Source: a virus (taxonomy: Duplodnaviria > Caudoviricetes). From it: a DNA stretch of 54,863 nucleotides. The stretch lies in IMG/VR virus record IMGVR_UViG_3300048586_000572, positions 1-54,863 of that record; one strand, given 5' to 3'. Below, in pieces: positions 23,647 to 41,073 of this stretch (its first letter is position 1; each line of letters begins with the position of its first letter). The notes under the pieces are model-generated. The model had not been told where the DNA came from. It searched no databases and saw only the letters and a program-made list of their open reading frames with translations. Position numbers and translations under genes: made by a program.

Positions 23647-24198
23647 TCAGGCGGACTTCTTGGCGATGCCGATGCGGCCGGCGGCTCCGACGATCGCGGC
23701 GATCTCCTCGTCGTCGGCGCTGCGGGGCTCTCCACCGCGTCCACCCACGTTCACGCGGGGGCGGTCGGCGCCCTCGGCGCGAAGCCGATCAGCCAGGCCC
23801 TGACGCTTGCCGGTCGGGGCGGCGGTCGGATTGGAGGCCTTGAGAAGTTCCTCGGCCTTGGCCGCAGACAGCTTCGTGCCGAAGGCCAGGGCCTCGGCCA
23901 GGCCGCGGTTGGCGCGGCCTGCATCCGACGTCAGGATCGCCTGGATGCGGGCGGCGCTGGCATCGGCGGCGGCGGGCGGAGCGGCCGGGGCCTCCTCCTC
24001 CTCTTCGCCCTCGTCCTCAGCCTCGGCGGCGTCCTCGTCTTCCTCCTCGGACCCTTCCAGGTCCTCGTCCTCATCCAGGTCCTCGTCCTCATCCAGGTCC
24101 TCGTCGTCCATCGGGGCGTCGGCGGACTGGGCGGCGGACGGGCCCGCATTCAGGGGGGCGGTCGGCGCGGAGCGCTGCGAGCGGAAGATCTTGAGCAT
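23647..24198 (-). CDS. Putative scaffolding protein (Nu3-like), highly acidic
   Basis: Acidic linker then ARIQAIL...LAEALA motif resembling the C-terminus of gpC-type proteins. Confidence 0.65.
   Translation of the reverse strand: MLKIFRSQRSAPTAPLNAGPSAAQSADAPMDDEDLDEDEDLDEDEDLEGSEEEDEDAAEAEDEGEEEEEAPAAPPAAADASAARIQAILTSDAGRANRGLAEALAFGTKLSAAKAEELLKASNPTAAPTGKRQGLADRLRAEGADRPRVNVGGRGGEPRSADDEEIAAIVGAAGRIGIAKKSA
24056..24105. repeat. 18-bp tandem repeat, ~2.8 copies, encoding DEDEDL
   Basis: TCCAGGTCCTCGTCCTCA at 24056, 24074 and partial at 24092. Confidence 0.85.
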
Positions 24199-24257
24199 GG
24201 GCCCTCGGTCCTTGAAGCGGTTAGGTTCGCTGTAGGATCGAGAAAGCCGCCGGGGCC

Positions 24258-24277
24258 GGCATCCGACAATGCTGAAA
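24258..24277 (-). promoter_or_regulatory. Late-type motif A, copy 3 (upstream of scaffold-decoration-capsid genes)
   Basis: Intergenic; plus strand GGCATCCGACAATGCTGAAA. Confidence 0.8.
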
Positions 24278-24287
24278 TGGGGCCGCC

Positions 24288-26800: not shown

Positions 26801-26807
26801 GTCCACC

Positions 26808-27050
26808 TCAGTAGAAGCTGAAGGCGCGGCGGCCGCCGGCATCCTCGCCGGTCAGCGTGGCGATGCGGGACTTCAGCTCGTCGATGTACTCGGCCAGCTT
26901 GCCGACGTCGGCCTGGGAGAAGTCGGCGCTGGTGCTGACGCCCGCGCCGGAATGCATTAGGCGGATGCGCTTGTTGCCGGTCAGCAGCTTGTGCCTGGCC
27001 AGCTCCGCTTCCGCGAGACGAAGCCGCAGCGTGGGAAGTTCATCTGTCAT
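26808..27050 (-). CDS. Head-tail joining protein gpW-like
   Basis: 80 aa between terminase and portal; ARHKLLTG...LAEYIDELK. Confidence 0.85.
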   Translation of the reverse strand: MTDELPTLRLRLAEAELARHKLLTGNKRIRLMHSGAGVSTSADFSQADVGKLAEYIDELKSRIATLTGEDAGGRRAFSFY

Positions 27051-30000
27051 CGTCGCCCGCGGACCTGATGCTGTGTGACAGCAGATCAGAGAGTTCGGGC
27101 CGGCATCCGACAATGCTGTTCCGGTCTGGCGCCAGGTCGTCCGCCGCGCCCCAGCCGTCGCCGCTGCCCCACCCCTCGGTGTCGTTGGAGACGCCAGCGT
27201 ACAGCTCCGCCTCCCGAGCGGCCTCAAGCTCCTCGAAGGTGCGCGGCGCGGCCGCCGGTTCCGCAACGGGCTCGGGCGCGGCCACCTCGGCGGGATCGAC
27301 CGGATCGGCCACCGGCGTCGTCTCCGCCGCGGGCGCGGCCGCCCCCGGAACCGGCGGCGGCCGGTGCGGCGAGACGGGCTCCTCCCCCGGCAGGACAAGC
27401 GACGCGTACAGGTCGCGGACGGTCACGGGTCGGGTGTCGCCGTTCCTCTGACGCTCCAGCTCCATTTCCTTGATTTTGACCGCGATCTGCTCGGCCAGCG
27501 TCTGCATCGCTTTCTCCTCGCGGTCGAAGTCGTGCGGTCCCCAGCGGCTCCAGCCGAGAAGCTCGGCGCCGATGCGGGAATAGTTCGAACAGTCGAGGGC
27601 CTCGTGGCGCGTGATGCCGTGCCCGACGAACCGGGGCGTGGGCCGCCTGCCCTTCGCGCCGACGTATTCGAGCCGCTCCGACACCAGCTGCTTGCACCAG
27701 TCGTCGCTGGCATCGCCATTGATGGTGATCCATCCCGGCGGAACGTCGTGCCCGTCGACCTGGCGGAGGTTCAGGTCGCCGAAAAGCTCCAGCTTGAGGC
27801 TCGACACGCCCGCGCGGACGAAGGTGTAGGTGGGATCGATGCCCCAGGACGCGTCTTCGGGCCGTTCCTTGCGCTTCGCCATCACCATGATCGGCGCGTC
27901 GAAGGACTTGGCGCCGACGACGCCGATGATCTTGGAGCGGTCCATCGTCATAAGCATGCGATCGACCAGGTCCGGCCGGTGGTTCCGGTCGATGACCAGC
28001 CGGCGGATGTTCATCACCGCGCCGCACGGATGCAGGTAGAGCCGCTTGGACACGGCCAGCAGCTGCGCCTGGATGTCGGGGTCGCTCGGGTCGCCGTCGA
28101 TGCGCAGGTGCTCGACCAGGTGACGCCGCCTGCGACGGCCGTACGCCCACACGTCGATCTCGATGTGGTCCTGGCCTATGTCCGCGCCGGCAGAGAGGAA
28201 CGTGGCCCAGGCCGGGATCTCGCGGGACCGCAGTTCGATCTTGCGGTCGCGGACCCGCTCCCACGAGGGGGCCTCGCCCGGCGGGCTGTAGGTCCGGGCG
28301 AACATGGTGTTCCAGATGACCTTGATCGCGGACTGCGAGCCGTCTGCCTGTTCCCATTCCTCGACGATCTTGGCCCAGGTCAGGCCGATGGTCGCGTAGA
28401 AGCTCGGCAGGTAATAAGAGCGGTGGTAGGCGGTCTTGTTGAACTCATCGAGCGCGGACCGGTCGCCGTCCTTGAGCCGCTGCATGAAGTCCGTGTCATC
28501 CGATAGGACCTTCGGGACCCACACGCCCTTGGCCAGCATCGCCTCCTTGTGCCTGCCTTCGTGGATGCGGCCGAAGTTCGGGGGGACTTCCTTGCACGTC
28601 TGGCAGAGGTAGCGGACCGTATTGGGCTTGCCCTCGGTCCAGACGAAGTTCTCCCACTCGAACGTGATGGGGGTCGAGCAGTGCGGGCACGGCATGAAGA
28701 ACCGGCGCTGATCCCTCTTTAGGAACGCGGGCTCGATCTGGCTGACCGCCTTCATGCCCGGCGTGCTGATCAGCATCATCTTGAAGTCGTCGCCGGCGGT
28801 GGTGCCGCGGACCTTCGCCACGCCTACGGTGTCGCCCTGCCCCTCCAGGTCGGCCGGATACTCCTCCAGCTCGTCGAGGATCATCCCACGGACCATTGTG
28901 GACTTCAGGTTCGCGGCGCTCTGCGCGGTCGCAAAGTAGAGCGCGCCGCCGGGAAAATGCTTTTCGCGCTCGCTGTTCTTGCTGTCCCGCTTCCTCGCCG
29001 GCAGGACCAGCTTCCCGAGTCCCTTCGGGTCGTCGTCGATCATCTGCTGCACGCGCGCGGACGTGCGCTTCATGACAGTCAGCGTCGGGCAGACATAGAG
29101 GAAGGGTCCGGGAGCGGATGCGATGTTGTAGCCGACGACATTATTGGCACCCTCCGTGTTGTGCGTCGGGATAAACGTCTCCCCGACGAGGAAGAGCCTC
29201 GAAGGCGCGTCGACGGAGATGCAGCGAACCGGCACGGATGGAACGGAACGGACATCCACGATCCTCCTCCGCCTGGTCTCGGTGAGCCGGAGACCGGGCC
29301 TGTCCACCGGGACCAGCCGGTCGCGCTTCCTCGCAAGCCCGAACACGGGGCTGTCGGAGTAGGCCATGAAGCCGACCTGGAAGAGGATGGCGGGATCGGT
29401 TTGGCGTGGCCCCCCGCGAAAACCACGTTCGGTCAAGCGGGCGGACATGGTGGGCTTGAGGCCAAGCGAGGCGATCAGCTCGTGGACATCCCTAGCCAGG
29501 TCCATATTTGACGCGACGAAGGAGCACCAACCTTTCTTGGTAATCGTTCCGTCCGTGTCCATCAGTCCCCGGAGCAAAGCGAGCCGCTGCTGCGGCGAGG
29601 ACCGGAGATACACCTCGGGGATGTGCTTGCGTTCTGTCAGGCCAAGCGCCACCAGGCCCGACCATAGACTTAGTGGACGGACGGTGGGCGATCTCGGCGT
29701 GCCGAAGCGGTGGAAGAGAACGTTCTCCACGTGGCAGCGGCGACATACGCGATGCTTTGATCGCGCGTCAGGCAACGTCATGTCATGGCCGCGCTTGCAA
29801 ATGCTGCCATCGACGCCACCGATGAGGATGTTCATCACCTTGCCCTTGGAGCCGGGCAGGCGCCGAACGAGCGTGGTGATGCCCTCAGCCCGAATCGCGG
29901 CCGCCATCTCCTCTACGTCGTCGTCATGGGTCGTGATCTGGTTCGAGCTCTGGTTTCCATCCCCCAACCATGCGCCCAGCGTGTAGGGCGGAATGGGGAG

Positions 30001-30606
30001 CGGCGTCTCCGGCAGGTCGAGCGGCCGCGCCACGTCGACGGCGTATCGATTGCCCATGCCCCGACTGAAGGTGGACGCTATCTCCTGCATGCGCAGGGTG
30101 CGGACCTTTGGCCGGCGCGCATCCTTCTCGTCCCACACCGTCCAGAGGTGACCATCGTCGCAGACGACGGTCGAGCCGTCCGAGAACTCGACCTCGAAAC
30201 ACGGGCGACCTTCGAATATCGGCGATAGGGCATCAACCCTCGTACGATTGCCCTTCTCATCGAACACCACGTCGCCGACGCGAATTTCGCCCATGGTGGT
30301 CCAACCGGCCTCGGTCGGCACCTTGGTATCGAGCGATAGGGGACCGCCGATCTGTCCGCCTTTGATCAATGCGGACGATCGGCACGGGGATCGCGCCGAC
30401 ATATTGTCCATGGGTTCCCTCATGAAGGGGACGCGGTCCGTCGACCACTGGCCGTGCTCGTGAGCATGCCGAGAAGACAGCTTGCGGTTCTTGTCGGCCC
30501 ATTCGCTCACGGTGAGGTCGGGCGCGGGCCGTAAGGCCTTGAGCAGCATCGCGTGGACCTCCGCGGCTCCACGGTAGGAAAGCAGCTCAGGATCGATTTG
30601 CAGCAT
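27040..30606 (-). CDS. Large terminase subunit, lambda gpA family, intein-containing
   Basis: VSEWAD, KGGQIGG|TE Walker A, ILDELE Walker B, ISTP, CPHC, EALDC. Confidence 0.93.
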   Translation of the reverse strand: MLQIDPELLSYRGAAEVHAMLLKALRPAPDLTVSEWADKNRKLSSRHAHEHGQWSTDRVPFMREPMDNMSARSPCRSSALIKGGQIGGPLSLDTKVPTEAGWTTMGEIRVGDVVFDEKGNRTRVDALSPIFEGRPCFEVEFSDGSTVVCDDGHLWTVWDEKDARRPKVRTLRMQEIASTFSRGMGNRYAVDVARPLDLPETPLPIPPYTLGAWLGDGNQSSNQITTHDDDVEEMAAAIRAEGITTLVRRLPGSKGKVMNILIGGVDGSICKRGHDMTLPDARSKHRVCRRCHVENVLFHRFGTPRSPTVRPLSLWSGLVALGLTERKHIPEVYLRSSPQQRLALLRGLMDTDGTITKKGWCSFVASNMDLARDVHELIASLGLKPTMSARLTERGFRGGPRQTDPAILFQVGFMAYSDSPVFGLARKRDRLVPVDRPGLRLTETRRRRIVDVRSVPSVPVRCISVDAPSRLFLVGETFIPTHNTEGANNVVGYNIASAPGPFLYVCPTLTVMKRTSARVQQMIDDDPKGLGKLVLPARKRDSKNSEREKHFPGGALYFATAQSAANLKSTMVRGMILDELEEYPADLEGQGDTVGVAKVRGTTAGDDFKMMLISTPGMKAVSQIEPAFLKRDQRRFFMPCPHCSTPITFEWENFVWTEGKPNTVRYLCQTCKEVPPNFGRIHEGRHKEAMLAKGVWVPKVLSDDTDFMQRLKDGDRSALDEFNKTAYHRSYYLPSFYATIGLTWAKIVEEWEQADGSQSAIKVIWNTMFARTYSPPGEAPSWERVRDRKIELRSREIPAWATFLSAGADIGQDHIEIDVWAYGRRRRRHLVEHLRIDGDPSDPDIQAQLLAVSKRLYLHPCGAVMNIRRLVIDRNHRPDLVDRMLMTMDRSKIIGVVGAKSFDAPIMVMAKRKERPEDASWGIDPTYTFVRAGVSSLKLELFGDLNLRQVDGHDVPPGWITINGDASDDWCKQLVSERLEYVGAKGRRPTPRFVGHGITRHEALDCSNYSRIGAELLGWSRWGPHDFDREEKAMQTLAEQIAVKIKEMELERQRNGDTRPVTVRDLYASLVLPGEEPVSPHRPPPVPGAAAPAAETTPVADPVDPAEVAAPEPVAEPAAAPRTFEELEAAREAELYAGVSNDTEGWGSGDGWGAADDLAPDRNSIVGCRPELSDLLSHSIRSAGDDDR
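27102..27121 (-). promoter_or_regulatory. Late-type motif A, copy 4 (3' end of terminase gene, pointing at gpW-portal)
   Basis: Plus strand GGCATCCGACAATGCTGTTC, 17 of 20 match. Confidence 0.72.
29158..30342 (-). mobile_element. Class-3 intein (395 aa) with LAGLIDADG homing endonuclease
   Basis: Begins PLSLDTKVPT, block B GHLW, block F VRCISV, ends IPTHN followed by Thr; LGAWLGDG and LRGLMDTDG endonuclease motifs. Confidence 0.9.
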
Positions 30607-31324
30607 CGATGTCCTCCTGGCTCTTCGACTGGTTCATCAGTTCCTGCCGGACCAGCTCGGCCACGAACTGGCTGACCTCGTGCGCATTCGGCAGGTCGAA
30701 CCTCGCGGCGATCTTGGGTCCAGCCTTGGTCGGGAAGACCTGCCACGACGACGTCGAGGCGCGCAGGACCGTGAAGAAATGGGCGGTCGTCTTGGCCTGG
30801 TCGACCAGCTTGCCTTCCGCGATGTCGTTCTCGCGGCGCAGGCGGCGCAGGCGCTCCTCCTCGATCTCGACCGCGATCCCCACCAGCGTCCCGGGCTGCG
30901 GACCCTCGGGCCGCGAGGCCGGTTGCCGCTTGGCAAGGTTGGCCTGCCGATGTTCCTCAAGGCGGCCGCGCAGGGGAACCACGTTGTCCGCCACGGGCGC
31001 GGCAGCAGGCGCGATCGGCTCAGGTGCGGACCCCGTCTCGGCGGGTGCGGACCCAATCCCAGGTTCCCGGTCCGCAGGGTCCGCACCGGGTGCGGACCTC
31101 TCCTCGATCGCCGCCGCGATGCTGGCTTTCGCGCGCAGCGCTTCGACGCCGCGACGCTGCGAGACGCGGGTATTCTCCTCCCACAGACGGTCTGCCAGGT
31201 CCGCGTCGATGGTGTCGTCGGGAAGCAGCGCGGCCGCGATCCGGTCCTTGAGCGCCTTGCGAACGGCCTTCTCGGAAACGCCGCGGCGCGTGGCGTATTC
31301 CCGACGCGACAGCCCCTTCGCCAT
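30587..31324 (-). CDS. Small terminase subunit (Nu1-like)
   Basis: N-terminal HTH (LSRREYATRRGVSEKAVRK), C-terminal EGKLVD coiled segment; overlaps large terminase start. Confidence 0.82.
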   Translation of the reverse strand: MAKGLSRREYATRRGVSEKAVRKALKDRIAAALLPDDTIDADLADRLWEENTRVSQRRGVEALRAKASIAAAIEERSAPGADPADREPGIGSAPAETGSAPEPIAPAAAPVADNVVPLRGRLEEHRQANLAKRQPASRPEGPQPGTLVGIAVEIEEERLRRLRRENDIAEGKLVDQAKTTAHFFTVLRASTSSWQVFPTKAGPKIAARFDLPNAHEVSQFVAELVRQELMNQSKSQEDIDAANRS

Positions 31325-31326
31325 GG

Positions 31327-31425
31327 TCAGCGACGCTGGTCCGCGAGGTGGACGATGTAGGTGATAGCGACGACGCCGGAGACGAAGACGGAGAACATGA
31401 TCGTGGTGGCTGCGGCCCAACTCAT
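31327..31425 (-). CDS. Possible 32-aa single-pass membrane peptide
   Basis: MSWAAATTIMFSVFVSGVVAITYIVHLADQRR; GAGG upstream; ends 2 bp before small terminase. Confidence 0.4.
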   Translation of the reverse strand: MSWAAATTIMFSVFVSGVVAITYIVHLADQRR

Positions 31426-31518
31426 GATGCGTCCTCGGCGTCTCTCGGCGGTCTTTCGATCCCGATGGCGACGGACGCGCCGTTGGCGATCAGCGCCGCC
31501 GTGGTGCCCGTTCACGAC

Positions 31519-31605
31519 GGGTGCGGACCCCGTTTTCGGGCTGGCCCACGATCAGGGCCGGACCATGGGAAGCCTGCTTGGCGTTTCGCCCCGGGAAGGA
31601 CCCGT
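31519..31605 (-). other. Putative cos packaging region
   Basis: Minus strand ACGGGTCCTTCCCGG (31591-31605) resembles lambda cosQ context; lies upstream of small terminase. Confidence 0.6.
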
Positions 31606-31712
31606 GATGCCCCTCGCTCTCGGAGGCGACCGGGCCCGCGCTGGCTTGCCGCCCCGCCTGGTCCCGGTCGCCCGTCGAGCAACACCCACGCATGCACCCT
31701 GCCATCGGGTTC

Positions 31713-31732
31713 GGCATCCGACAGTGCTGAAA
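31713..31732 (-). promoter_or_regulatory. Late-type motif A, copy 5 (head of packaging operon)
   Basis: Plus strand GGCATCCGACAGTGCTGAAA, intergenic. Confidence 0.78.
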
Positions 31733-31928
31733 TGAGGCGGCACAGGAGGCGGCCTGTTCGAACAGGATTGGTCCACCGTGAAACCCTTGCAGGCCTGGGG
31801 TTTCGAGGCTTGTGGAACAGGAAGGCTACGAAGCCTTCACCATTGGGCCATGGAGCCACGCCCCCGGGCATGAACCGTTCACGGCTCCCTCCTATGGATG
31901 AGGGATCACCGGTTCGGGAGGGGATCGC

Positions 31929-32207
31929 ATGTACCGTGAGATGACCGCCGCGGACATCGTCGACATCGATCTGGTCTATGGGGACGGCCTCAACTGGTGC
32001 ACCGATCCGGACGCGGCGCCCGATCGCAGCTGGCTCGTGATCATCGCCCGCGGCCCCAACGGGCGACCCCACGGCGAGGCTGGCTACCGAGACGTCGCCA
32101 AGGGCAAGTGGTTCTGGTTGGACGGCGAGGCGATCAAAGAGCCGGTGACAGCTTGGTGCAGGATCAGCCGTCCGCACCTTCGCCGCAAGCGGTTGAACGA
32201 CACTTGA
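31929..32207 (+). CDS. Hypothetical phage protein (Trp-rich, DUF551-like ending)
   Basis: 92 aa, GGGAGGGG RBS, VTAWCRI near C-terminus. Confidence 0.6.
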   Translation: MYREMTAADIVDIDLVYGDGLNWCTDPDAAPDRSWLVIIARGPNGRPHGEAGYRDVAKGKWFWLDGEAIKEPVTAWCRISRPHLRRKRLNDT

Positions 32208-32316
32208 AGCCACAGGAGGCGTAGCCGCCCGCGAATCGGTAGTTGAATCGATATCGTCACTTTCTTCGGTAGCCGCTTGAATCCGTTGCGAATCGTTCGC
32301 TACGGAGACGCCGCCC

Positions 32317-32700
32317 ATGCGCCTGCGAGTTGCCAGCCGACCGTTGGCCAAGGACTACCCGACCGTCCGGACCGCCGTGCTTGAAGCGGCGGTTCGGGAG
32401 ATCCATCGCCGCGGGCTAGGGCCGGAGGACATCCTGGTGCCGGAGCGCCGGATGGAGAAGCTAGAGACGCCGGACGCGGTGGCGGCCTGCCACGCCATCC
32501 TCGACAAGGTGCGCACGCACATCGTCGCCGGCGGCTGGTCCAACGCGTACATCCGCAACACGACGCGGCTGCGCTCGATCCGCGTCGGCATGCTCGATCG
32601 GCTCCGCGAGGGCGACTATGCCGGCTTCAGCCTGCCGCGCGCCATGCAGCTGGCGGAGGCGCTGGGACTGAACGTCCGCATGAAGGATGACGCCCGGTGA
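32317..32700 (+). CDS. XRE-like HTH protein
   Basis: C-terminal LREGDYAGFSLPRAMQLAEALGLNV; GGAG RBS. Confidence 0.6.
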   Translation: MRLRVASRPLAKDYPTVRTAVLEAAVREIHRRGLGPEDILVPERRMEKLETPDAVAACHAILDKVRTHIVAGGWSNAYIRNTTRLRSIRVGMLDRLREGDYAGFSLPRAMQLAEALGLNVRMKDDAR

Positions 32701-32882
32701 GCCAGACCCCGACCAAGCGCTGCGAGGCGGCGAAGCGCGAGCCCGCCGGCGACGCCTTGATACCCATGTCCGAGCCCATGTTTCAGCGTTTGAAGCGCCG
32801 GGAGTTCGACACCTTCAGCCTGCCCCGCGCCTATCAGATCGCCGCGCGCCTCGGGCTCAAGATCGAGATCGTCGTCGAATAG
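32697..32882 (+). CDS. Short paralogue or remnant of preceding XRE-like gene
   Basis: FDTFSLPRAYQIAARLGLKI matches the upstream protein's C-terminus. Confidence 0.45.
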   Translation: MSQTPTKRCEAAKREPAGDALIPMSEPMFQRLKRREFDTFSLPRAYQIAARLGLKIEIVVE

Positions 32883-32898
32883 GGACACGGTCCGTCGA

Positions 32899-32918
32899 TT
32901 TCAGCAGTGTCGGGTGCC
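32899..32918 (+). promoter_or_regulatory. Late-type motif A, copy 6 (head of lysis operon)
   Basis: TTTCAGCAGTGTCGGGTGCC, intergenic, 45 bp before ATG 32963. Confidence 0.78.
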
Positions 32919-32962
32919 TGGGCGCCCCGCACCCTTCGACCTCGCAACCCCGAGGTCGACAG

Positions 32963-33298
32963 ATGCCCCAGAGACGCAAGCGCAAGCACCTGCCGCCGTA
33001 CGCGGTGCTCGCCGAGATGCGCAGCCGGATGACGGTGGCGCAGATGGCGGAGCGGCACGGCTGGCTCCCCAACAGCATCGCGAACCGGCTGAGGCGTGGC
33101 CCGACGCTCCTGGAGACCCGAGAGCACGCGCTGCGTCGCCACGTGATCCTGGACTGCTGGGCGGAAGGTTCCGGCGCGAAGGACATCGCCCGCGCCGTCT
33201 CGATGTCCCACGTCGCCGTCTTCGGCGTCATCGCCAGGGCGCGCGCTGCCGGCGATCCCAGGGCCACTCCCCGCTATCGTGAGAGGAAGCCGTCATGA
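32963..33298 (+). CDS. Small protein with two HTH-like segments
   Basis: MTVAQMAERHGW...IANRL and SGAKDIARAVSMSHVAV; coupled to endolysin. Confidence 0.6.
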   Translation: MPQRRKRKHLPPYAVLAEMRSRMTVAQMAERHGWLPNSIANRLRRGPTLLETREHALRRHVILDCWAEGSGAKDIARAVSMSHVAVFGVIARARAAGDPRATPRYRERKPS

Positions 33299-34173
33299 GG
33301 ACGTCGTACGCCATCGCCCTGCCGAACGTGCTCAAGCTCGAAGGCGGCAAGGTCAACCATCCGAAAGATCCCGGCGGCCGCACGAACATGGGCGTGACGC
33401 AGCGGGTCTATGACGGGTTCCGCCGGAACCGGGGCCTGCCGCTCCGGACCGTGTACGACATCGAGCGCCACGAGGTGGAGGCCATCTACAGGCTGCAGTA
33501 CTGGGACAAGGTGCGGGGCGACGATCTGCCGGCGGGCGTGGACCTGGTCGTCTTCGACGGCGCCGTGAACAGCGGACCGCTACAGTCGGTCAAGTGGTTG
33601 CAGGCTGCCCTGGGCGGCAATGTCCGGATCGACGGCGTCCTGGGCGAGGCGTCCCTGGCGGCAGTGAAGGCGCATCCCGATCACGATGCCCTGGTTGCCG
33701 CCATCTGCGCCATCCGGCTGCGCTTCCTCAAAGCCTTGAAGACGTGGTCGACGTTCGGTCGCGGATGGGCCGCACGGGTGGCACATGTAAAGGATACCGG
33801 ACAGGCCTTAGCTTCCGGATCGGTCGGTCCCGTGCCGCTGTATTTCGCCGGCGGGGAGGCCAAGGGCCGCATCGAGGACGCTAGGCGGGTGCCGGGCAAG
33901 GCCCTCGCGGATGCCACCGCGGGCGCCGGTGGCGCGACGGGCATCCTGTCCCAGCTCACCGAGACGCTGTCGCCGGCGGCGTCCGCCATCCCGGCCATCG
34001 GCCAGGTCGTGACCGTGCTCACCGCCATCGGCGCGGCCGCTGCGGCCGCCGGTCTCCTGTACCGCTGGTACGCGACCCGCCGGCAAGCGGAGATAGACGC
34101 CGCGCTGCTGATCGCGCCCTCGGTGCCGGTCAACGACAACGCGAGCGCCGACGTCGCCAGCGAGGCCGCGTGA
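33295..34173 (+). CDS. Endolysin, glycoside hydrolase family 108, with C-terminal hydrophobic tail
   Basis: EGGKVNHPKDPGGRTNMGVT, FDGAVNSG, FGRGWAAR. Confidence 0.92.
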   Translation: MRTSYAIALPNVLKLEGGKVNHPKDPGGRTNMGVTQRVYDGFRRNRGLPLRTVYDIERHEVEAIYRLQYWDKVRGDDLPAGVDLVVFDGAVNSGPLQSVKWLQAALGGNVRIDGVLGEASLAAVKAHPDHDALVAAICAIRLRFLKALKTWSTFGRGWAARVAHVKDTGQALASGSVGPVPLYFAGGEAKGRIEDARRVPGKALADATAGAGGATGILSQLTETLSPAASAIPAIGQVVTVLTAIGAAAAAAGLLYRWYATRRQAEIDAALLIAPSVPVNDNASADVASEAA

Positions 34174-34496
34174 TGGATTGGGTCTGGACCATCATCGCCA
34201 CCCTCGGAGCCTTGGCGGCCGCCATCGCCGGCATCTGCCTTCTCCCTGGCGGCGCAGCCCTCGTCGCCGCCATCCTGAACTCCCCGCTCGCCCGGGCCCT
34301 GGTGGCCGCGGGCGGCGTCATTCTCATGATCCTGACGATGCGCCGGCAGGCCTATGACGAAGGCCAGGCTGCGGCGAAGCGCATGGTCGACGAGGCGAAT
34401 GCGGAGGCGCTGCGCCGGCGCCGGGCGATCGAGCGCGACGTCGCCGACGACACCGATGCCGAGATGCGCAAGCGGCTGGAGAGGTGGTCCTTGTGA
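34170..34496 (+). CDS. Putative inner-membrane spanin
   Basis: Hydrophobic N-terminus then charged helical tail; follows endolysin. Confidence 0.55.
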   Translation: MMDWVWTIIATLGALAAAIAGICLLPGGAALVAAILNSPLARALVAAGGVILMILTMRRQAYDEGQAAAKRMVDEANAEALRRRRAIERDVADDTDAEMRKRLERWSL

Positions 34497-34840
34497 TCCA
34501 GCTCTTCCTCACCTCCTTGGCGCTGATGCTGGTGGCGCACGCCCTGGCCGACTATCCCCTCCAGGGCGACTGGTTAGCGAAGGCCAAGAACCGGACGCTG
34601 GCGCCGGTGCCGGGTTCGGTCGTCTGGCCCGGCGCTATGACCTGCCATGCCGGCATCCATGCCTTCGGCGTCTTCCTGGCGACGGGGTCCTGGGTTCTCG
34701 CCGTCGGGGAGTTCGCAGCCCACGCGGCGATCGACGACGCGAAGTGCCGAAGCGTGATCGGCTACAACGCGGACCAGGCGCTGCATGTCGGCTGCAAGGT
34801 CGCCTGGGCCCTGATGCTGGTCTGGTGGAGCGCGTCATGA
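34493..34840 (+). CDS. DUF3307-like membrane protein
   Basis: HALADYPLQ...HAAIDDAK...DQALH. Confidence 0.75.
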   Translation: MIQLFLTSLALMLVAHALADYPLQGDWLAKAKNRTLAPVPGSVVWPGAMTCHAGIHAFGVFLATGSWVLAVGEFAAHAAIDDAKCRSVIGYNADQALHVGCKVAWALMLVWWSAS

Positions 34841-35082
34841 ACCGCACCCTCTCCCACCTCGGCATGGCCGCGGCGTTCCTGATGATCCTGGCGGTGACGC
34901 TCGGCGCCTGCGCCAACAAGCCGCCGGTCACGGGTGGCCGCGGGGGTGCTTTCTGCGACGTCGAGGAGCCGATCCGCCGGCCGCTGGCGGAACTGCTGGC
35001 GATGCCGCGCAGCGAGCAAAACCGAATCGTCGCGCACAACGAGCACGGCGAACGCGAGTGCGGATGGAGACCGAATCGATGA
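34837..35082 (+). CDS. Putative outer-membrane spanin lipoprotein
   Basis: Signal peptide with LGAC lipobox; FC...HNEHGERECGW. Confidence 0.7.
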   Translation: MNRTLSHLGMAAAFLMILAVTLGACANKPPVTGGRGGAFCDVEEPIRRPLAELLAMPRSEQNRIVAHNEHGERECGWRPNR

Positions 35083-35375
35083 GCCCTCAACAGACCCGCA
35101 CGCCCGCTTCCTCCGCCGGAGCCGGAGGTGGAGGCGACGACTTCCGGGGCGACATGAAGCTGCTGACCTACAAGGTCGACGAGCTGACGCGGAAGTTCGA
35201 CAAGTTCAGCGACGAGATCAAGACGACGTACGCGAGCAAGACCGAGGTCGCGGAGCTCCGCGACGACGTGCACGGCATCAAGGGCAACATCACCTGGCTG
35301 CTGCGGCTCGTCATCGGCCTCATCGTCGCGGCGGTCATCGGCCTCGTCATCGTGAAGGGCGGAACGCCAAGATGA
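35079..35375 (+). CDS. Holin-like / XhlA-like membrane protein
   Basis: Coiled coil then single C-terminal TM helix (WLLRLVIGLIVAAVIGLV). Confidence 0.6.
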   Translation: MSPQQTRTPASSAGAGGGGDDFRGDMKLLTYKVDELTRKFDKFSDEIKTTYASKTEVAELRDDVHGIKGNITWLLRLVIGLIVAAVIGLVIVKGGTPR

Positions 35376-35914
35376 GGCCTGACGACCTGCGGCGCCTATC
35401 GGAGACGGATCGGTTCTACGGGAAGGCGCTGGCCGCCCTCGTCGGGCCCGGCCGCGCCATGGCCATGGTCATGCGCCTGGTGAGCCTGGCGTACTGGATC
35501 GTGATAATCGGCGCTGTGGGCTGGCTGATGAGCCAAGCCTTCGACCGCGAGCCGCCTGTCGACATCCTGTCCACCGAGGTCCTGACCGAAGCGGTTCGAC
35601 CCGGGGAAGCGATCCGCGTCAGATACCACCTGGTTCGGCATAGGGTCTGTCGGACGGAGACCTCGTGGGTGATCCTCGACGGTATCTCGGAGTATCGGCG
35701 TTTCGGCCCGGTCGTAGCCGAGGCCGTTGGCCGCGTGGGCGACGATGTCTTCGTGAAGGGCTGGACCTTGCCCCTTGGCGCAGCGCCAGGCGCAGGACGC
35801 CTGAGGACGATTACCACCTGGCGCTGCGAGGGGAATTTCTTACACGCCTTCTACCCGATCGTCCGCGTAGGACCCGACCTGCATTTCCGGATCGTGGGCA
35901 CGGCACAGCCTTGA
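35372..35914 (+). CDS. Membrane-anchored periplasmic protein (possible lysis regulator)
   Basis: One TM segment then beta-rich domain with two Cys; ATGA-coupled. Confidence 0.55.
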   Translation: MRPDDLRRLSETDRFYGKALAALVGPGRAMAMVMRLVSLAYWIVIIGAVGWLMSQAFDREPPVDILSTEVLTEAVRPGEAIRVRYHLVRHRVCRTETSWVILDGISEYRRFGPVVAEAVGRVGDDVFVKGWTLPLGAAPGAGRLRTITTWRCEGNFLHAFYPIVRVGPDLHFRIVGTAQP

Positions 35915-35950: not shown

Positions 35951-37669
35951 TCACTGCATCGCAGATGGGTTGGGATGCCCGTCCTGAGCGACCTGAAAGC
36001 GGCGCTGTCCAGCAAGGCGCTTCTTACGTTCGGTCGCGTACCACGGATCCTCGGGAACGATCGCAAATCCTCTCCAGCGATCGTTGTAAGCCTCGAACGA
36101 AGTCCGCTCGTCGCGGTACATCTCGAACAGCACTTTCCCGACGTTTCGACCGTAAAGGGGCCAGAGCAGGTGCTCCATCTCGCCTGGGACGCGGATCAAG
36201 GTTTTCGTCTCGCCGCGCTCAAAGGCCGCCTGGCGCCGCTCGCTCTCCGCCTGATCGTAACTGGGACGGGTGCGGCAGTCGACGACCTCGACGTAGGGCT
36301 CTTCCGCCCCCCCCGACCCCCACACCCCATTATGTGGAATCTCAGGACGAATAAGCTTTTGTTCGCAATAGCTTGGAACCGAATTTTCGATGACCTTCTC
36401 GGCAGCCCTTTTCGAGGCCTCGAACGCGGTCCGGGCACGGGTTTCGTACCGTTCCATCTCCTCGTCCATGATCTCGCGCAGCACCGCCTCATGGCGAGCC
36501 TGAACGATGAAGCTGTCGTGCACCGGCAGGCAAACGACATCGATCTTGGCGCAGGCCTTCACCACCCTCAGCGCAATCTCGGAATCCTCCCGCATCAGCG
36601 TTATCCCGACGTCCGCGCCGATGTCGGCCGCGATCACGGGGTTCCTCGCGATCACGGCGTCGACAAGGCGGCGGGTCGTCGGCCAGTCGAGCGGCCAGGC
36701 GGTGCCGTCTCTCGACGTGCTCGCCAGCAGCGCGGCCACGGCCTGGCCGAGGTGCCGCGCGTTGAACGCGACAAGCAGGGCCCGCTTCGAAAGCGAGCGG
36801 TCGAACTCGGCGACGTCGTACGGGTCGAAGTCCAGGGACTGGCCACGCTTCGCGTAGAGCATGCGGGGGTGCAGCGACTGATAGTCGAGCTCCACCACCG
36901 GCTCGCCGTTGATCCGGAGGTCAGCGCGCCTGTTTGAGGGGAGGTTCTGGACCCAACAATAGATCCGGCCGCCACAGGTCCACTTGCCTCGGCTGAATAC
37001 ACGGTAGAGCACCGGGGTGTCGGTCATCCTGATCACGGCGCCATCGACGCGGATCAGGTTTCCCTCGATGACGACGCCTTCGCCCGGCAGATCTAGGCGG
37101 ACCTGCGCCATCGCCCGGTTCAGGCTTTCCAGATCGCGCCGCATCGCGACGGTCTGAGCGGTGTCCTTGTAATCGATCAGGTCGCCTCGCTCGTCGCGGA
37201 GCCGGATCGTCTCGTGAATACGGTGCTCGAAGCCGATGCCGGCGAAGGCCTCGATCAGATTGTCGGTCGCCCTGATGCGTGACTGACGCTGCGTCCTGCG
37301 GTGGTCGCCAGGGCGTGCGCGTTCTTCTTCAATCAGACCCAAGGCCAGCAACTCGTCTACGGCGGCGACGATGCGGTCATATGTATACGCCAGGCCTTCG
37401 TACCGGCCGGCGCCACGGTACCATTCCCGCCGGCGGGAATAGGACACCCACTCGCCGGCGCGGCCTGCAAGAACGGCGGCCGCCATGATGCTGAGGACGG
37501 CCTGATCGGCCTGGCGATCGCCGGTCGCCAGCCAGCCTGTTCGGGACGCGGCTGATGCCGGCACGCGCCAATGGAAATCCAGCGGGCGGTCGCGGCCCGC
37601 GACGACGATGTCGTCGGCGGCGTCCAAGGCCTGCTCGATGTCTGCAATGACGCTGGCGGTGAATTCCAT
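35951..37669 (-). CDS. Stand-alone family-A DNA polymerase / T7-RNA-polymerase-like protein
   Basis: RVF...GGRIY...QN, motif A ELDYQSLHPRMLY, motif B RSLSKRALLVAFNA, motif C LPVHDSFIV; no exonuclease motifs seen. Confidence 0.75.
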   Translation of the reverse strand: MEFTASVIADIEQALDAADDIVVAGRDRPLDFHWRVPASAASRTGWLATGDRQADQAVLSIMAAAVLAGRAGEWVSYSRRREWYRGAGRYEGLAYTYDRIVAAVDELLALGLIEEERARPGDHRRTQRQSRIRATDNLIEAFAGIGFEHRIHETIRLRDERGDLIDYKDTAQTVAMRRDLESLNRAMAQVRLDLPGEGVVIEGNLIRVDGAVIRMTDTPVLYRVFSRGKWTCGGRIYCWVQNLPSNRRADLRINGEPVVELDYQSLHPRMLYAKRGQSLDFDPYDVAEFDRSLSKRALLVAFNARHLGQAVAALLASTSRDGTAWPLDWPTTRRLVDAVIARNPVIAADIGADVGITLMREDSEIALRVVKACAKIDVVCLPVHDSFIVQARHEAVLREIMDEEMERYETRARTAFEASKRAAEKVIENSVPSYCEQKLIRPEIPHNGVWGSGGAEEPYVEVVDCRTRPSYDQAESERRQAAFERGETKTLIRVPGEMEHLLWPLYGRNVGKVLFEMYRDERTSFEAYNDRWRGFAIVPEDPWYATERKKRLAGQRRFQVAQDGHPNPSAMQ

Positions 37670-37744
37670 TCCACGGAAGTTACCCCCGCCCCCCGCCAGC
37701 GCAAAGGGACAATTGACGTCTAAGTCATTGACGATATTGGCTTA

Positions 37745-38130
37745 TCGACCAGGGGGTACCCCTAGGGGTCGAGGCTCCATGAATTCCCGCTTTCAGCCTA
37801 AACCAGCCATGCAAACGAAAGACCTGCCAGGTCAAAGCCTCCGAACGTCAGCAGCCTTAAAAAGCCCGTTCTGGTGCATTCCAAGGCCATTACAAAGATC
37901 GCAATTTGTAATGGCCTTCGCCTCAGAGAGGTCTATTGGCCCCGCAGGTCCAGCTGGGCCTGTGGGGCCGCTTCGTGCCGTCATCGGTGTAAAACACCAA
38001 TGGCGATAAATACCCATGATCGGCCCATGTTTCGCCATGGACGGCCCAGGTTTCTCCCATGATCCCCATGAAATCGCCCATGGGGGCGATTTTTGATTTC
38101 ATGGCGTCCATGGGGTTTTCATGGGGAAAT
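37745..38130. repeat. Cluster of palindromes, inverted repeats and a phased CATG array
   Basis: Palindromes 37753-37769, 14-bp-arm IR 37883-37918, near-palindrome 37938-37969, nine CATG at ~10-11-bp period 38015-38123. Confidence 0.8.
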
Positions 38131-38216
38131 CGACCGATCGAGGGCTGGGCGGCGCCGATGCCGCCACCGGTCCCTCGATCAGCCGGCAAGACCGAATCGG
38201 TGCGCGTCTGATGCCA

Positions 38217-38705
38217 TCAAGCCCGCGCCGCCCAGTCCGCCGCGGCCGCCCTCGCCCGCTCCGCACCGACCTGGGACCGGTATTGATCGCCACGCCACCA
38301 CCATGTCTTGCAGAAGAAGACACGCCGGCAGGTGACCGGCTCGCGCAGCACCGCCAGCCGCCGCGCCTCCGCCGGGCTGACCGCCTTGCCGCAGGTCGGG
38401 ATCGAGTTGCGGATCGCGACGCTGTCATATGCGGCGTCGTATGCCCTGTGCCACCTGATCTCGGGCGAGCCGTCACGATGGCAAAGCCCGGTCTCCTGGA
38501 GGACCTCGTGGCCGGGGGCGATCCGCTCTAGCGCCGCGATCAGCACCCGCAGCTGGGCCATGCGGCCGGCGTCCTGGGCGTCCCGCTGGGCCTTCGCGAT
38601 CGCGACCTGGCGACTGGACCAGTCGATCCATGCCTGCGCGTTTCGGTTCGCATTCTTGATGGCCTGCCCCATCGCCAGGGCTTCCCCGATCGCCGCGAAA
38701 TCCAT
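38217..38705 (-). CDS. Hypothetical protein
   Basis: 162-aa ORF with purine-rich leader. Confidence 0.65.
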   Translation of the reverse strand: MDFAAIGEALAMGQAIKNANRNAQAWIDWSSRQVAIAKAQRDAQDAGRMAQLRVLIAALERIAPGHEVLQETGLCHRDGSPEIRWHRAYDAAYDSVAIRNSIPTCGKAVSPAEARRLAVLREPVTCRRVFFCKTWWWRGDQYRSQVGAERARAAAADWAARA

Positions 38706-38912: not shown

Positions 38913-39128
38913 TCAGCCGAGATATGTGTCGGGCGGGCCGACGTATCCCTCGTCGAGATGCCATCGGTCCTCGTTGATCGAATAGTAGATGCGCCTGGCC
39001 GCCTGGAGCGCCCTGAGCTCTTTCGACAGCACGGCCGCCTCTTTCCCTGGCGTGAGGCCCAGAGCCTTCCGGAGCGCATGCCGCTTGAGCGGCCGCTTCG
39101 ATAGTTCGTTCAAGATCGCGCTCCTCAT
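38913..39128 (-). CDS. Small winged-helix-like protein
   Basis: 71 aa, ATGA-coupled to relaxase. Confidence 0.5.
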   Translation of the reverse strand: MRSAILNELSKRPLKRHALRKALGLTPGKEAAVLSKELRALQAARRIYYSINEDRWHLDEGYVGPPDTYLG

Positions 39129-40351
39129 AGTGGCACTCCCCAGATGTCGGTTTGACCTGGCACCCAAGCCGGGCGGCTAGTGCCGGCGCTAATGGTCTCA
39201 AGCTTGTCGGACAGCCTCTCGGCCTCGCGGACGGCTCTCCAATCGACGTTGCGCAAAGCGCTCTTTAGGCGAGCTCGCGCGTACGCCCGGCGGCCGCGGC
39301 CTTCAGCTGCCGCACCTCGTGCTGCAATGCCTCCACTGCGTCGGCCTGCCGATCGACCGCCTCCCCGACCAGCTTCAGCGTCTCGGCCAGCGATTGAACG
39401 CTGTCCTCCTCGCCCTCCTCGGGCGTCAGCGCCTCCAGCAGCGCCGTCATGATCGACCGCAGGCCCCGCACTTCCATCAAGATTTCGTCCATCGATAGCT
39501 CCCTTTAAAACCATTCCACCCAGCCGTGCCTTGACCTCGCCGGCGCTGATACGGTGTCCTCGCTCGCGGCTTGCCCGCCCGATCGCTCTTGTCAGGCTGT
39601 GAGCGGTCCCGGTGGCGTCGACGACGACGGGCCCGGCCGTGCCCTGCCTGAGGTCGAGGCCGCGCTTGGCAAGTTCGTTGACGAACCCCGGGCCGTCGAT
39701 CGACGCGTCCCATGCCGCCAGGCACGCCGCTCGGATGTCAGCGAGCTCGATGCCAGTCCTGGCCTCGATCAGCCTTTCGCCCGGCGTCACAGGTGCCACC
39801 GGCTTTTCGGCGTCGATCAGGCCGTGCGAGGCCATCCACTGGACGATGTCGTCTCGGCCTTCCTGCGCCAGGCGATAGGCGACCGACCTGGCGTGAGGCG
39901 TCGGCGCTGGCGTCAAGCTGAGCCCAAAGCCGACCACGATGTTCACGTAGGTCCGCCGGGCGAAATCTTGAGAGATGTCCACCGCCCTGCCATCCGGACG
40001 GATCAGGCCATACGCCCTGTGCTCGTGTCTGCGATCGTGCTTGACGTGCTGGGCGCCGCAGTACGGCTGATGCTGCAGGCCGAACTCAACTTCGAAGGCG
40101 CGCCACCAGGCGGTCAGGACGGCCTGGCAATCGGGAGCGTCCGGCGGAGGGTCCGCGTGAACGTGATAGATCGGACGCCCTGCCCGACCATGTCGGCTGC
40201 CGGCGACGATCTCGCGCAGCTGGGCGTGCAGGTCCTCGCGAGTGGCCACGCCCCGGGGCTGGATCACCTCGGTGATCTGACCCTTTTCCGATTTGAGCAG
40301 ATGCGCGCTCAAGGCGCGGCCGCCTTTCCCTGGCGTGGCGCCGGAAATCAC
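39125..40351 (-). CDS. HUH relaxase / mobilisation nuclease (MOBP/VirD2-like)
   Basis: LSAHLL, IYHVHADP, HVKHDRRHEHRAY three-His motif, F...L..RGL.L..G C-domain. Confidence 0.78.
   Translation of the reverse strand: MISGATPGKGGRALSAHLLKSEKGQITEVIQPRGVATREDLHAQLREIVAGSRHGRAGRPIYHVHADPPPDAPDCQAVLTAWWRAFEVEFGLQHQPYCGAQHVKHDRRHEHRAYGLIRPDGRAVDISQDFARRTYVNIVVGFGLSLTPAPTPHARSVAYRLAQEGRDDIVQWMASHGLIDAEKPVAPVTPGERLIEARTGIELADIRAACLAAWDASIDGPGFVNELAKRGLDLRQGTAGPVVVDATGTAHSLTRAIGRASRERGHRISAGEVKARLGGMVLKGAIDGRNLDGSAGPAVDHDGAAGGADARGGRGGQRSIAGRDAEAGRGGGRSAGRRSGGIAARGAAAEGRGRRAYARARLKSALRNVDWRAVREAERLSDKLETISAGTSRPAWVPGQTDIWGVPL
39265..39492 (-). CDS. Nested alternative-frame coiled-coil protein inside relaxase (MobB-like position)
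   Basis: 75 aa helical ORF with AAGGGAG RBS. Confidence 0.55.
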   Translation of the reverse strand: MDEILMEVRGLRSIMTALLEALTPEEGEEDSVQSLAETLKLVGEAVDRQADAVEALQHEVRQLKAAAAGRTRELA

Positions 40352-41073
40352 TGGCCTGCCCTTCGGCTGATCTGAACATCAGCGCCGACGGTAACGTGGG
40401 GCCAGTCGCCATAAGCGAAGGCCCGCATGCTGACGCCGGAGACGTCGGGCACCTCGGTCCATTCTTTGGTGCCGGCTTCGCGGACGCAGACCTGCGCCGA
40501 GGCGATGACGCGGCCCTGGTCGTTGGGCTCGTCCTCCAACGCCATGATTGCGTCGGCCGCCTGCAACATGAGGCGGCGCTGCTGGCGGGCGGCCATGAGT
40601 CGGCCTTGGGCCTCGGCGATCAGTGTGGCGACGAGATCTCTGGGCGCCAGGTCGCGCCGCCAGGTCCTCCCGTCGGGGGCCACGACGATTTTGCATGCGT
40701 GATGGAAGTACATCTTCAGGCCGCAACGGGCGTACCGGGCGAGCAGGTGCTCAATCTGACGCGCGGCCGACGGTCCGGGCCTGTTGTTGCCCGGACCGCG
40801 CACCTGGAGCACTTCCAGGTAATAGAGCTCAAGGTCGAGGATCGACCGTCCGTCCGACACGCGACGGAGCGACCAGATGCTAGGAGCGTTCAATTTCTCA
40901 TGCCCGACGAAGTCCGGATAAGGCCGCGTCGCAAGGCAATTTTTCATCGCGAGGCCTTCGCGGACCAAGGCCTCCCGCGTAGTCGGGCGGCACCAATAAT
41001 ATCCGTCCGGGCAGTCGATGCGCTCATCTGTGCCAGCGTCGCCGGCGACGGGGCGGTTCTTGAGCAAGGTCAC
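40348..41073 (-). CDS. PcfJ-like domain protein
   Basis: LVREGLAMKNCL...IWSLR...QVRGPGN. Confidence 0.65.
   Translation of the reverse strand: MTLLKNRPVAGDAGTDERIDCPDGYYWCRPTTREALVREGLAMKNCLATRPYPDFVGHEKLNAPSIWSLRRVSDGRSILDLELYYLEVLQVRGPGNNRPGPSAARQIEHLLARYARCGLKMYFHHACKIVVAPDGRTWRRDLAPRDLVATLIAEAQGRLMAARQQRRLMLQAADAIMALEDEPNDQGRVIASAQVCVREAGTKEWTEVPDVSGVSMRAFAYGDWPHVTVGADVQISRRAGQ

Follow-up and report, generated by a model that had tools for sequence, protein, structure and literature searches.

TV-Pols were described by Iyer, Abhiman and Aravind in 2008 (PMC2579912) as proteins of 400-600 amino acids (aa) with a minimal family-A polymerase core, devoid of any known domain or nuclease, in which a beta-hairpin carries an invariant Arg, the palm two Asp, and the fingers an Asp together with an RxxxK motif. 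A subset bears an extra N-terminal domain, TV-PolN, predicted to be all-helical, and one subset is linked or fused to a D5-like helicase. The genes, with Methylobacterium members among those listed, reside in mobile elements with integrases, resolvases or transposases, in Brucella beside the gene for a Bro-N/KilA-C protein, and the authors predicted primase-polymerase activity for the products (PMC2579912). According to the accessible parts of two later reports (Bebel et al. 2020, PMC7581432; Rice 2022 preprint, 10.1101/2022.12.02.518924), the only experimentally tested TV-Pol is CcPol-MP of the staphylococcal cassette chromosome mec (SCCmec), a small A-family DNA polymerase that primes with deoxyribonucleotides (dNTPs) at a repeat-bearing site beside its own operon and needs a partner protein and a helicase. 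Here we analyze a polymerase gene in IMG/VR record IMGVR_UViG_3300048586_000572 (Duplodnaviria; Caudoviricetes), the whole 54,863-nucleotide (nt) stretch of which is referred to as the window. On balance, we favor the reading that its 572-aa product is a TV-Pol-type minimal family-A nucleotidyl transferase with an N-terminal winged helix, acting as the replication initiator or primase-polymerase of a 51.4-kb element integrated at a tRNA-Gly gene. The fusion to a DNA-binding domain and the adjoining conserved repeat block indicate that the protein most likely starts the DNA copying of the element rather than the transcription of late genes.

The minimal family-A primase-polymerase of mobile elements has thus been known since 2008, and what is added here is testable mechanistic detail. 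The branch differs from CcPol-MP in its fused DNA-binding domain, in the replacement of the residues that exclude ribonucleotides, and in the lineage-specific arrays beside the gene; it offers a cheap test of a family-A polymerase as an origin-specific initiator, and of whether an ancestral-type core makes RNA, DNA or both. The gene and the parts of its product, delimited on an AlphaFold2 model, are as follows:

35951..37669, minus strand: polymerase gene, open reading frame (ORF) of 572 aa with an ATG start; stop codon 35951-35953
37220..37561, minus strand: N-terminal winged-helix domain, residues ~37-150 (AlphaFold2 model)
36380..37219, minus strand: minimal family-A-type palm/fingers core, residues ~151-430, with R235, D262/H267, R291/K295/N303 and H384-D385-S386
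35954..36379, minus strand: C-terminal extension, residues 431-572, low-confidence helices (predicted local distance difference test score, pLDDT, mostly <60), found in close relatives only

The codon-position GC content of this ORF is typical for genes of the 65% GC window, and the orthologues in two related loci, L016 and L017, begin at the same start (MEF...). The original prediction had described the product as a minimal RNA polymerase with polymerase motifs A (ELDYQSLHPRMLY), B (R291-x3-K295) and C (VHDSF), and all three strings were found in the translation. A homology search of cluster representatives returned 6364 of them at E ≤0.001 and 448 at E ≤1e-30, from which 82 homologues were drawn for an alignment. 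The motif residues are essentially invariant in this alignment, which confirms the motifs as genuine:

R235, 82/82: beta-hairpin Arg
D262, 82/82: motif A palm Asp
H267, 82/82: motif A Asp+5
D282, 72/82: fingers Asp
R291, 79/82: motif B
K295, 82/82: motif B
N303, 81/82: motif B Lys+8
H384 and D385, 82/82 each: motif C
S386, 72/82: motif C, with Glu at this position in 4/82 only

The conserved portion spans residues ~25-405, and the final ~140 residues are common to close relatives only; full-length coverage is confined to matches of at least 53% identity, and a free-standing 184-aa protein (P0126) matches residues 401-572. Curated libraries recognized nothing in the 572-aa protein (no Pfam family at E ≤1, no NCBIfam family and no PADLOC model), no PDB chain was matched by sequence with either the single sequence or the 82-sequence profile as query, and the sole PHROG match, phrog_4756, is of unknown function. 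A search of IMG/VR for close relatives found none. The polymerase family is thus huge (6364 cluster representatives), uncharacterized and without a Pfam model, and the open literature, with subscription papers outside the coverage of the search, contained no account of this branch or of the winged helix and repeat arrays associated with it.

The AlphaFold2 model, for which the alignment served as input, has high confidence for residues 25-430 (mean pLDDT 85; predicted template modeling score 0.74). In structure comparisons with Foldseek and VIA, the core resembles Pol I, apPOL, T7 DNA polymerase (DNAP), T7 RNA polymerase (RNAP) and mitochondrial RNAP. The best 50 Foldseek matches listed against the PDB are family-A DNAPs only, with weak E values from 5.8e-4. 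Among viral predicted structures, the best matches are uncharacterized 400-450-aa proteins of Aeromonas, Vibrio and Rheinheimera phages (E 1e-22 to 1e-17), and the Zamilon virophage replication protein is a structural match only (E 4.8e-3, rank 37). The protein belongs to the family-A/T7 polymerase superfamily, its catalytic core is very small and its motif C reads HDS, as the original prediction had it in part; the structural comparison proposed there, against T7 RNAP, Pol I and TV-Pols, returned the polymerase fold with RNAP and DNAP matches tied.

Compared by description with the TV-Pols of 2008, and with no named member matched, the family appears to fit on the evidence of sequence and model. 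The minimal core without a nuclease domain (approximately residues 25-430), the hairpin Arg (R235, on strands 222-225/233-237 of the AlphaFold2 model), the two palm Asp, the fingers Asp and the RxxxK motif are all present, and so is the mobile-element context, in the form of an integrase and of 50-nt perfect direct repeats that bound the 51.4-kb integrated element:

885..934, no strand: attL, 50-nt perfect direct repeat of the tRNA-Gly 3' end (repeat family D16)
52326..52375, no strand: attR, inside tRNA-Gly(tcc) at 52328-52401 (minus strand)
1087..2616, plus strand: integrase (phrog_1, E 1.6e-16)

Furthermore, Methylobacterium members, listed among the TV-Pols in PMC2579912, are also dominant here, together with Methylorubrum, among the homologues found, and a Bro-N + KilA-C protein, the same partner as in Brucella (PMC2579912), neighbors the polymerase in 6/14 genome loci. 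The N-terminal domain differs, being modeled here as a winged helix and predicted in PMC2579912 to be all-helical. The D5-like helicase link or fusion was not found: none of the 10 long homologues examined carries a Pfam domain, and there were no fused forms longer than 1001 aa, which is weak evidence. One recurrent neighbor, present in 9/14 genome loci, was considered as a helicase and rejected, as it is a Lon-type AAA+ module; the 554-aa ATPase of the window (2746-4410) was rejected on comparison as a counterpart of this neighbor.

CcPol-MP shares with our protein the small A-family polymerase of an integrated mobile element and the adjoining repeat-bearing site. As described in the accessible part of PMC7581432, CcPol has no N-terminal domain, depends on a separate OB-fold partner, MP, and on the helicase Cch2, and keeps the equivalents of E710 and F762, whereas the polymerase here has a fused winged helix and no recognized partner, and its family has an invariant His and Asn/Leu/Gln at these positions. 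Two marks of PolA-SSB systems, a same-operon helicase and E710/F762 equivalents, are lacking; the scan on which the former statement rests covered 41 window proteins (~20 small ORFs lay outside it) and recognized no helicase, primase or initiator. Iteron-binding initiators and plasmid primase-polymerases, such as pRN1 ORF904 in the accessible part of its description (PMC2777425), also combine a DNA-binding domain with lineage-specific direct repeats and have the initiator gene adjoining the presumed origin, as found here for the winged helix. They differ in using pairs of winged helices alone or primase domains of the archaeo-eukaryotic type, whereas the catalytic part here is a family-A palm, and no Rep family model in Pfam matched the polymerase. 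By analogy with these systems, the gene of a DNA-binding protein beside lineage-specific phased repeats would represent the usual initiator-origin layout.

The repeats lie in a conserved non-coding region directly upstream of the polymerase gene, followed by a block of genes on the same strand:

37670..38216, minus strand: non-coding region of 547 nt between the 162-aa gene and the polymerase, GC 57%; candidate origin (ori), possibly an origin of transfer (oriT)
38014..38123, minus strand: nine same-orientation CATGR repeats, spaced 11, 9, 21, 12, 9, 22, 10 and 11 nt
37883..37918, no strand: perfect 14-bp inverted repeat with an 8-nt loop, arms kept in L017
37938..37969, no strand: 19-nt overlapping palindrome, 89% complementary
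38217..38705, minus strand: 162-aa protein without family match, 83-84% identical in L016/L017 and kept with the polymerase
38913..39167, minus strand: 84-aa protein without family match, 58-65% identical in L016/L017
39125..40351, minus strand: candidate MobA/VirD2-like relaxase (HUH nuclease), PF03432 at 25.6 bits against a cut-off of 24.6, residues 41-132
40348..41073, minus strand: PcfJ-like protein, weak match (PF14284, E 0.0095, below cut-off)

The non-coding region is conserved in the window, L016 and L017 with a mean column identity of 78%. The CATGR spacings correspond to one or two helical turns, and CATGG/CCATG reaches 12 copies per 160 nt at the array and nowhere else in the window exceeds 4. 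In the three-way alignment, 43/45 repeat-core columns are invariant compared with 38/75 in the spacers (Fisher p 7e-8) and 207/426 in the rest of the region. The inverted repeat, ~100 nt downstream of the array, folds as single-stranded DNA at -15.6 kcal/mol (z -6.5), a value matched by 0/200 shuffles. The relaxase candidate (75-86% identity) and the PcfJ-like protein (69-80%) are also conserved in L016 and L017, and the 162-aa and 84-aa proteins are conserved in these two loci only.

Repeat arrays recur beside polymerase genes in other lineages. CATGG density was counted in 18 sequences (17 loci and the window; L006 and L008 were omitted as duplicates of L005 and L007), and a dense array, of 9-14 copies per 160 nt compared with locus means of 0.3-0.8, is found no more than 1.5 kb from the gene in 6/18, namely the window, L010, L016, L017, L019 and L020, which show no such density elsewhere. 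Of all window proteins, only the polymerase has a homologue near the array in L019 and L020. Other loci carry tandem repeats 39-130 nt after the gene:

L004: 4.2 copies of 40 nt
L011: 2.8 copies of 19 nt
L012 and L014: ~3.8 copies of 39 nt, the unit consisting of two ~20-nt half-units

Tandem Repeats Finder (TRF) reported 4 arrays scoring 100 or more in the 55.8 kb that lie no farther than 1.5 kb from the gene, compared with 1 in the remaining 312.9 kb; for scores of 140 or more, the counts are 4 and 0, respectively. By either measure (TRF score of at least 60, or CATGG density), arrays adjoin the gene in 10/20 sequences. The array type follows the polymerase tree: its labels change 5 times, compared with 8.4 times on average after shuffling, and 0/200 shuffles gave a value as low. 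The ORFs called as polymerase in L012 (9746-11959, 737 aa) and L014 (9563-11950, 795 aa) traverse the ~20-nt repeat arrays beyond the conserved core; these C-terminal extensions are probably non-coding.

These observations suggest how the favored initiator role might be carried out. The winged helix would bind the phased CATGR array of the non-coding region that immediately precedes the polymerase gene, and the polymerase core would begin a primer de novo at this array or at the nearby hairpin-forming inverted repeat. The core could then extend the primer, perhaps together with the neighboring HUH relaxase-like nuclease, and priming at the repeats would replicate the excised element.

A competing proposal came from the original prediction, according to which the polymerase transcribes the late genes of a lambda-like temperate phage from six copies of the motif GGCATCCGACAATGCTG. 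The motif itself is genuine: 6 matches with at most 3 mismatches were found where 0.25 were expected, and 0/100 shuffles reach 6. All six copies are oriented alike with respect to the local genes and precede gene blocks; those at 19605, 24258, 27102, 31713 and 32902 fall inside the virion and lysis module, and the sixth is at 9247-9263. The proposal was examined by comparison with the metagenome locus L017, which is integrated at the same tRNA-Gly site and contains the left flank, the integrase (85% aa identity) and the att sequence (100%), as well as the block from the PcfJ-like gene to the polymerase (75% nt identity). The module in question is the following:

9354..35647, no strand: lambda-like virion and lysis module, 26.3 kb, outside the polymerase module

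In L017, position 10609 (window 35647) is followed 70 nt on by position 10680 (window 9354), so that the 26.3 kb with every virion and lysis gene and five motif copies have no counterpart there; L017 ends at a contig end upstream of the block, and late genes elsewhere in that element are possible. The polymerase of L017 is nonetheless intact (575 aa), with the block at 64% aa identity and a ratio of nonsynonymous to synonymous substitution rates (dN/dS) of 0.16-0.21. For the core, dN/dS is 0.16-0.19 in all three pairwise comparisons, with or without an adjoining phage module, indicating purifying selection, although dS is near saturation (1.0-1.2), which tempers the support that these ratios lend to our reading. 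The arrangement in the window is not an assembly artifact, as short contigs from three runs of three studies (X2, X3 and X5) read across position 35647 with 0-1 differences; read joints with sides of 20-29 letters were disregarded. None of the sequencing runs listed for the locus is an RNA run. Additionally, GGCATCCGACAATGCTG is absent from the 21 other loci compared (L001 being the window's own stretch), with only two matches at 3 mismatches, and an exact-motif scan of IMG/VR gave two chance matches in unrelated contigs of 45-50% GC that share no proteins with the window. The polymerase does not travel with the late motif: the gene is linked to the repeat region and the relaxase block, and its linkage to late genes is lost.

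The wider distribution of the family points in the same direction. Members are carried by 28/401 genomes of one order, where they are spread over non-phage mobile elements, and the family is found mostly in non-phage contexts. This spread, and the presence of the gene's own repeat and hairpin region, also count against a link with the late motif. Several of the genomic copies contain in-frame stops (two contigs of genome G001, C59 and C125, as well as G021, G167 and others), and one Methylobacterium genome has three copies of the gene; such stops and multiple copies fit decaying mobile-element genes.

The placement of the gene beside the late region, which the original prediction had noted as the place where lambdoid phages keep their late regulator, was borne out only as regards position: the gene is adjacent to the lysis cassette (33295-35375, plus strand), and it is convergent with it rather than upstream and co-directional like a Q-type regulator, an adjacency that is not conserved in L017. 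The same prediction's statement that no Q-type regulator is recognizable agrees with the scan of the 41 proteins. What remains of the proposed minimal RNA polymerase is the superfamily, the small core and motif C; transcription from the late motif is unsupported, and the primase or replicative role, raised there as the alternative, is the one that our analysis favors.

Whether the product is RNA or DNA was approached with two reference alignments, one of T7-type RNAPs and one of family-A DNAPs, each comprising six sequences from named phage records. As had been claimed, HDSF corresponds to motif C of T7-type RNAPs, the reference consensus being IHDSFGT, compared with VHDE in family-A DNAPs. 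Profile-profile alignment (hhalign) with the RNAPs covered 51 columns at motif C, with HDS falling on H811-D812-S813 (E 0.0072, probability 5.4%, non-significant), and alignment with the DNAPs covered the motif C region (E 0.092, probability 0.6%, non-significant). At the selectivity positions, for which the register was taken from the model (strand 256-262, helix 266-274 and helix 291-303) and not from an alignment, the family compares as follows:

Motif A Asp+5: His in 82/82; T7 DNAP E480; T7 RNAP G542
Motif B Lys+4: Asn 51, Leu 15, Gln 9 of 82; T7 DNAP Y526
Motif B Lys+8: Asn in 81/82; T7 DNAP Y530; T7 RNAP Y639

All six reference RNAPs conserve G542 and Y639, and all six DNAPs conserve E480, Y526, Y530 and E655. 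With T7-type RNAPs, the family thus shares the His-Asp-Ser of motif C and lacks, in this offset-based register, the Gly at Asp+5 and the Tyr at Lys+8, which are His and Asn; with family-A DNAPs, it shares the palm/fingers fold, the catalytic Asp of motifs A and C and the RxxxK motif and lacks both a sequence match and the selectivity residues (Glu, Phe/Tyr, Tyr and HDE). T7-type RNAPs, including mitochondrial RNAP and N4 RNAPII, gave no sequence-family match in Pfam-A, NCBIfam or solved chains. T7 RNAP is an enzyme of 883 aa, compared with a catalytic core of ~280 residues here, and the N-terminal domain of our protein is a simple winged helix of ~110 residues. In T7 RNAP, the promoter is recognized by a specificity hairpin between motifs B and C and by the large N-terminal domain. 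At the presumed place of the hairpin between motifs B and C (residues 305-380), our model contains helices only and no beta-hairpin (DSSP). Fold and profile comparisons tie T7 and mitochondrial RNAPs with Pol I-type DNAPs and so do not choose between RNA and DNA synthesis; RNA synthesis appears compatible with both the modeled structure and the sequence. It is rather unlikely, in our view, that the polymerase is a self-contained, sequence-addressed RNA synthesizer, in which the winged helix reads a lineage-specific repeat and the ~280-residue core starts chains with ribonucleoside triphosphates (NTPs). If so, it would be the smallest known site-specific single-subunit RNA polymerase/primase, and the naturally diversified protein-site pairs could serve as orthogonal initiation systems.

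Several observations weigh against the initiator reading. No helicase partner was found among the scanned proteins, and the thumb is modeled as one helix (171-187) and a small sheet (199-214) ahead of the beta-hairpin, not as the coiled coil of two antiparallel helices described for TV-Pols. The family profile did not match phage Ma-LMM01, a TV-Pol carrier named in PMC2579912, a result that is evidence neither way. The equivalents of the ribonucleotide-excluding Pol I residues E710 and F762 are replaced in the family, whereas CcPol keeps them; the active site as a whole matches neither Pol I nor T7 RNAP, and the motif C profile is slightly closer to RNAPs than to DNAPs, neither match being significant. 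With respect to the arrays, the clustering of their labels on the tree may be due to kinship alone, and 9/20 sequences (L002, L005-L008, L009, L013, L015 and L018) have no array by either measure; five of these (L005-L008 and L013) represent near-copies of a single locus, and contig ends truncate two others, L009 and L018. L003 has no array by TRF either, and three ~50-nt repeats are visible by eye only. Finally, lytic phages with homologues own replication enzymes; Rheinheimera phage Barba5S has its own primase and DNA polymerase, and the homologue is not the main replicase there.

The other explanations are less probable. That the protein is a promoter-specific RNA polymerase transcribing the late genes from the six GGCATCCGACAATGCTG motifs is very unlikely. 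The HDS motif C, the slight inclination of the motif C profile, the genuine and co-oriented motifs upstream of gene blocks, the absence of a recognized Q-type regulator, and the UniRef name "DNA-directed RNA polymerase" on 3 of the 120 homologues listed would all agree with it, but it is opposed by L017, where the polymerase block persists under selection with no counterpart of 9354-35647 at that place, by the lack of the motif in the 21 other loci, by the convergence with the lysis genes and by the mostly non-phage contexts of the family. The replacement of G542 and Y639 by His and Asn and the absence of a modeled hairpin between motifs B and C add to this, and the small helix-turn-helix (HTH) proteins of the late module (32317-33298) are simpler candidates for readers of the motif. 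The GGCATCCGACAATGCTG late motif therefore needs an explanation other than the polymerase.

A role as a transfer-associated primase, with the non-coding region as the oriT of the relaxase, is also improbable, although it draws on the same neighborhood. Here the enzyme would prime the complementary strand on a transferred or rolling-circle single strand rather than at a vegetative origin, and the hairpin would act as the single-strand initiation signal. Plasmid-borne primases with a role in transfer priming are known, and the genetic linkage between the polymerase, a MobA/VirD2-like relaxase and a PcfJ-like protein in the window, L016 and L017, the presence in the same element of ArdC and DUF736, which are typical of conjugative elements, and the perfect 14-bp inverted repeat with its strong single-strand fold would suit such a role. 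Phased direct repeats, however, are more typical of origins than of oriT, no relaxase is among the recurrent neighbors in the 14 genome loci, the relaxase match itself is marginal (25.6 vs 24.6 bits), and the window contains no type IV secretion genes. We consider it equally doubtful that the protein synthesizes nucleic acid in conflict or regulation apart from replication, be it as a polymerase expressed early by a phage or element and yielding non-coding RNA or DNA, or as one that serves defense or anti-defense. Such a function would be consistent with the homologues in 243/50,697 phage records, located among small early genes of large lytic phages with their own replication enzymes, with the AbiJ-like gene at 41547-42314 of the window and the OLD/AriA-like ATPase after the gene in L002, L009 and L014, and with the Xre-type HTH domains in 10 of the 120 homologues listed; yet no PADLOC model matches the polymerase, the defense neighbors are inconsistent across loci, and the repeat arrays beside the gene would be left unexplained.

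The distant homologues in lytic phages (23-31% identity) include ORF100 of Vibrio phage ICP1 (L023), which lies among early genes, and gp036 of Barba5S (L024). The 243 phage-record homologues are mostly in lytic phages of 80-145 kb, annotated as hypothetical and heading runs of small early-type genes. The open literature covered by the search contained no characterization of ICP1 ORF100.

The remaining parts of the element are arranged as follows:

2746-8301, both strands: ATPase (plus) and two methyltransferases (minus)
~9.9-31.4 kb, minus strand: tail and lambda-like head genes (tape measure, capsid E, S49 protease, lambda portal, gpA terminase)
31.9-35.4 kb, plus strand: small HTH proteins and lysis genes
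35951-47241, minus strand: block ending in the polymerase, with the relaxase-like HUH nuclease, PcfJ-like and AbiJ-like proteins
49134-50500, minus strand: ArdC and DUF736

The virion and lysis block at 9354-35647 thus sits inside an element with integrase, relaxase, ArdC and DUF736, and the relative at the same tRNA-Gly site, L017, lacks it at that place, which suggests a hybrid of a phage and a mobilizable element or a satellite-like derivative. What had been taken for a lambda-like prophage is a virion module inside an integrase/relaxase element. A search with the terminase found no relatives, and for the portal the best match in the 50,697 phage records reaches 38.6%. The large terminase gene (27040-30606, minus strand; 1188 aa) encodes a LAGLIDADG domain at residues 340-401, ahead of the gpA ATPase match at 483-696, and thus probably contains an intein or a homing-endonuclease insertion. 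Within the late module, the product of 32963-33298 was considered as GcrA-like and rejected, having only non-significant matches to resolvase HTH domains, and a search with the ORF at 32317-32700 gave no match. By eye, a GC-rich inverted repeat together with a short run of T can be seen ahead of several copies of the late motif (19560-19680, 24215-24335 and 31670-31790), which looks like terminator-then-promoter punctuation between late gene blocks, and the core of GGCATCCGACAATGCTG holds a short GCAT-N6-ATGC symmetry.

The gene structure at the relaxase-like ORF (39125-40351) is uncertain. A 75-aa ORF at 39265-39492 (minus strand; third-codon-position GC 0.88) overlaps its 3' part in another frame, and in L017 the long relaxase frame is interrupted between residues 292 and 364, with the 75-aa frame kept (84% identity). 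Defense-type cargo occupies 2746-8301, where the ATPase, with matches to PtuA and type II restriction-enzyme models, is accompanied by a 404-aa partner and the two DNA methyltransferases; L017 has an equally long ORF (554 aa) in the corresponding position that shows no similarity to the window ATPase, so this slot appears to be variable. The AbiJ-like protein at 41547-42314 is of the Abi_C type.

In addition to the late motif, we identified a second one, GGCATCGTCTCTTTCGG in the sense orientation, within a conserved stretch of ~50 nt directly upstream of several start codons of the early block. Copies are located at 41121-41137, 43329-43345, 43884-43900 and 44793-44809, with weaker copies at 48574-48601, and in L017 the motif is found at 4191-4207, upstream of the PcfJ-like gene. 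There are 7 matches compared with 0.36 expected, one of which (22708-22724) lies outside the early block. The motif could be an early promoter/operator or a leader element.

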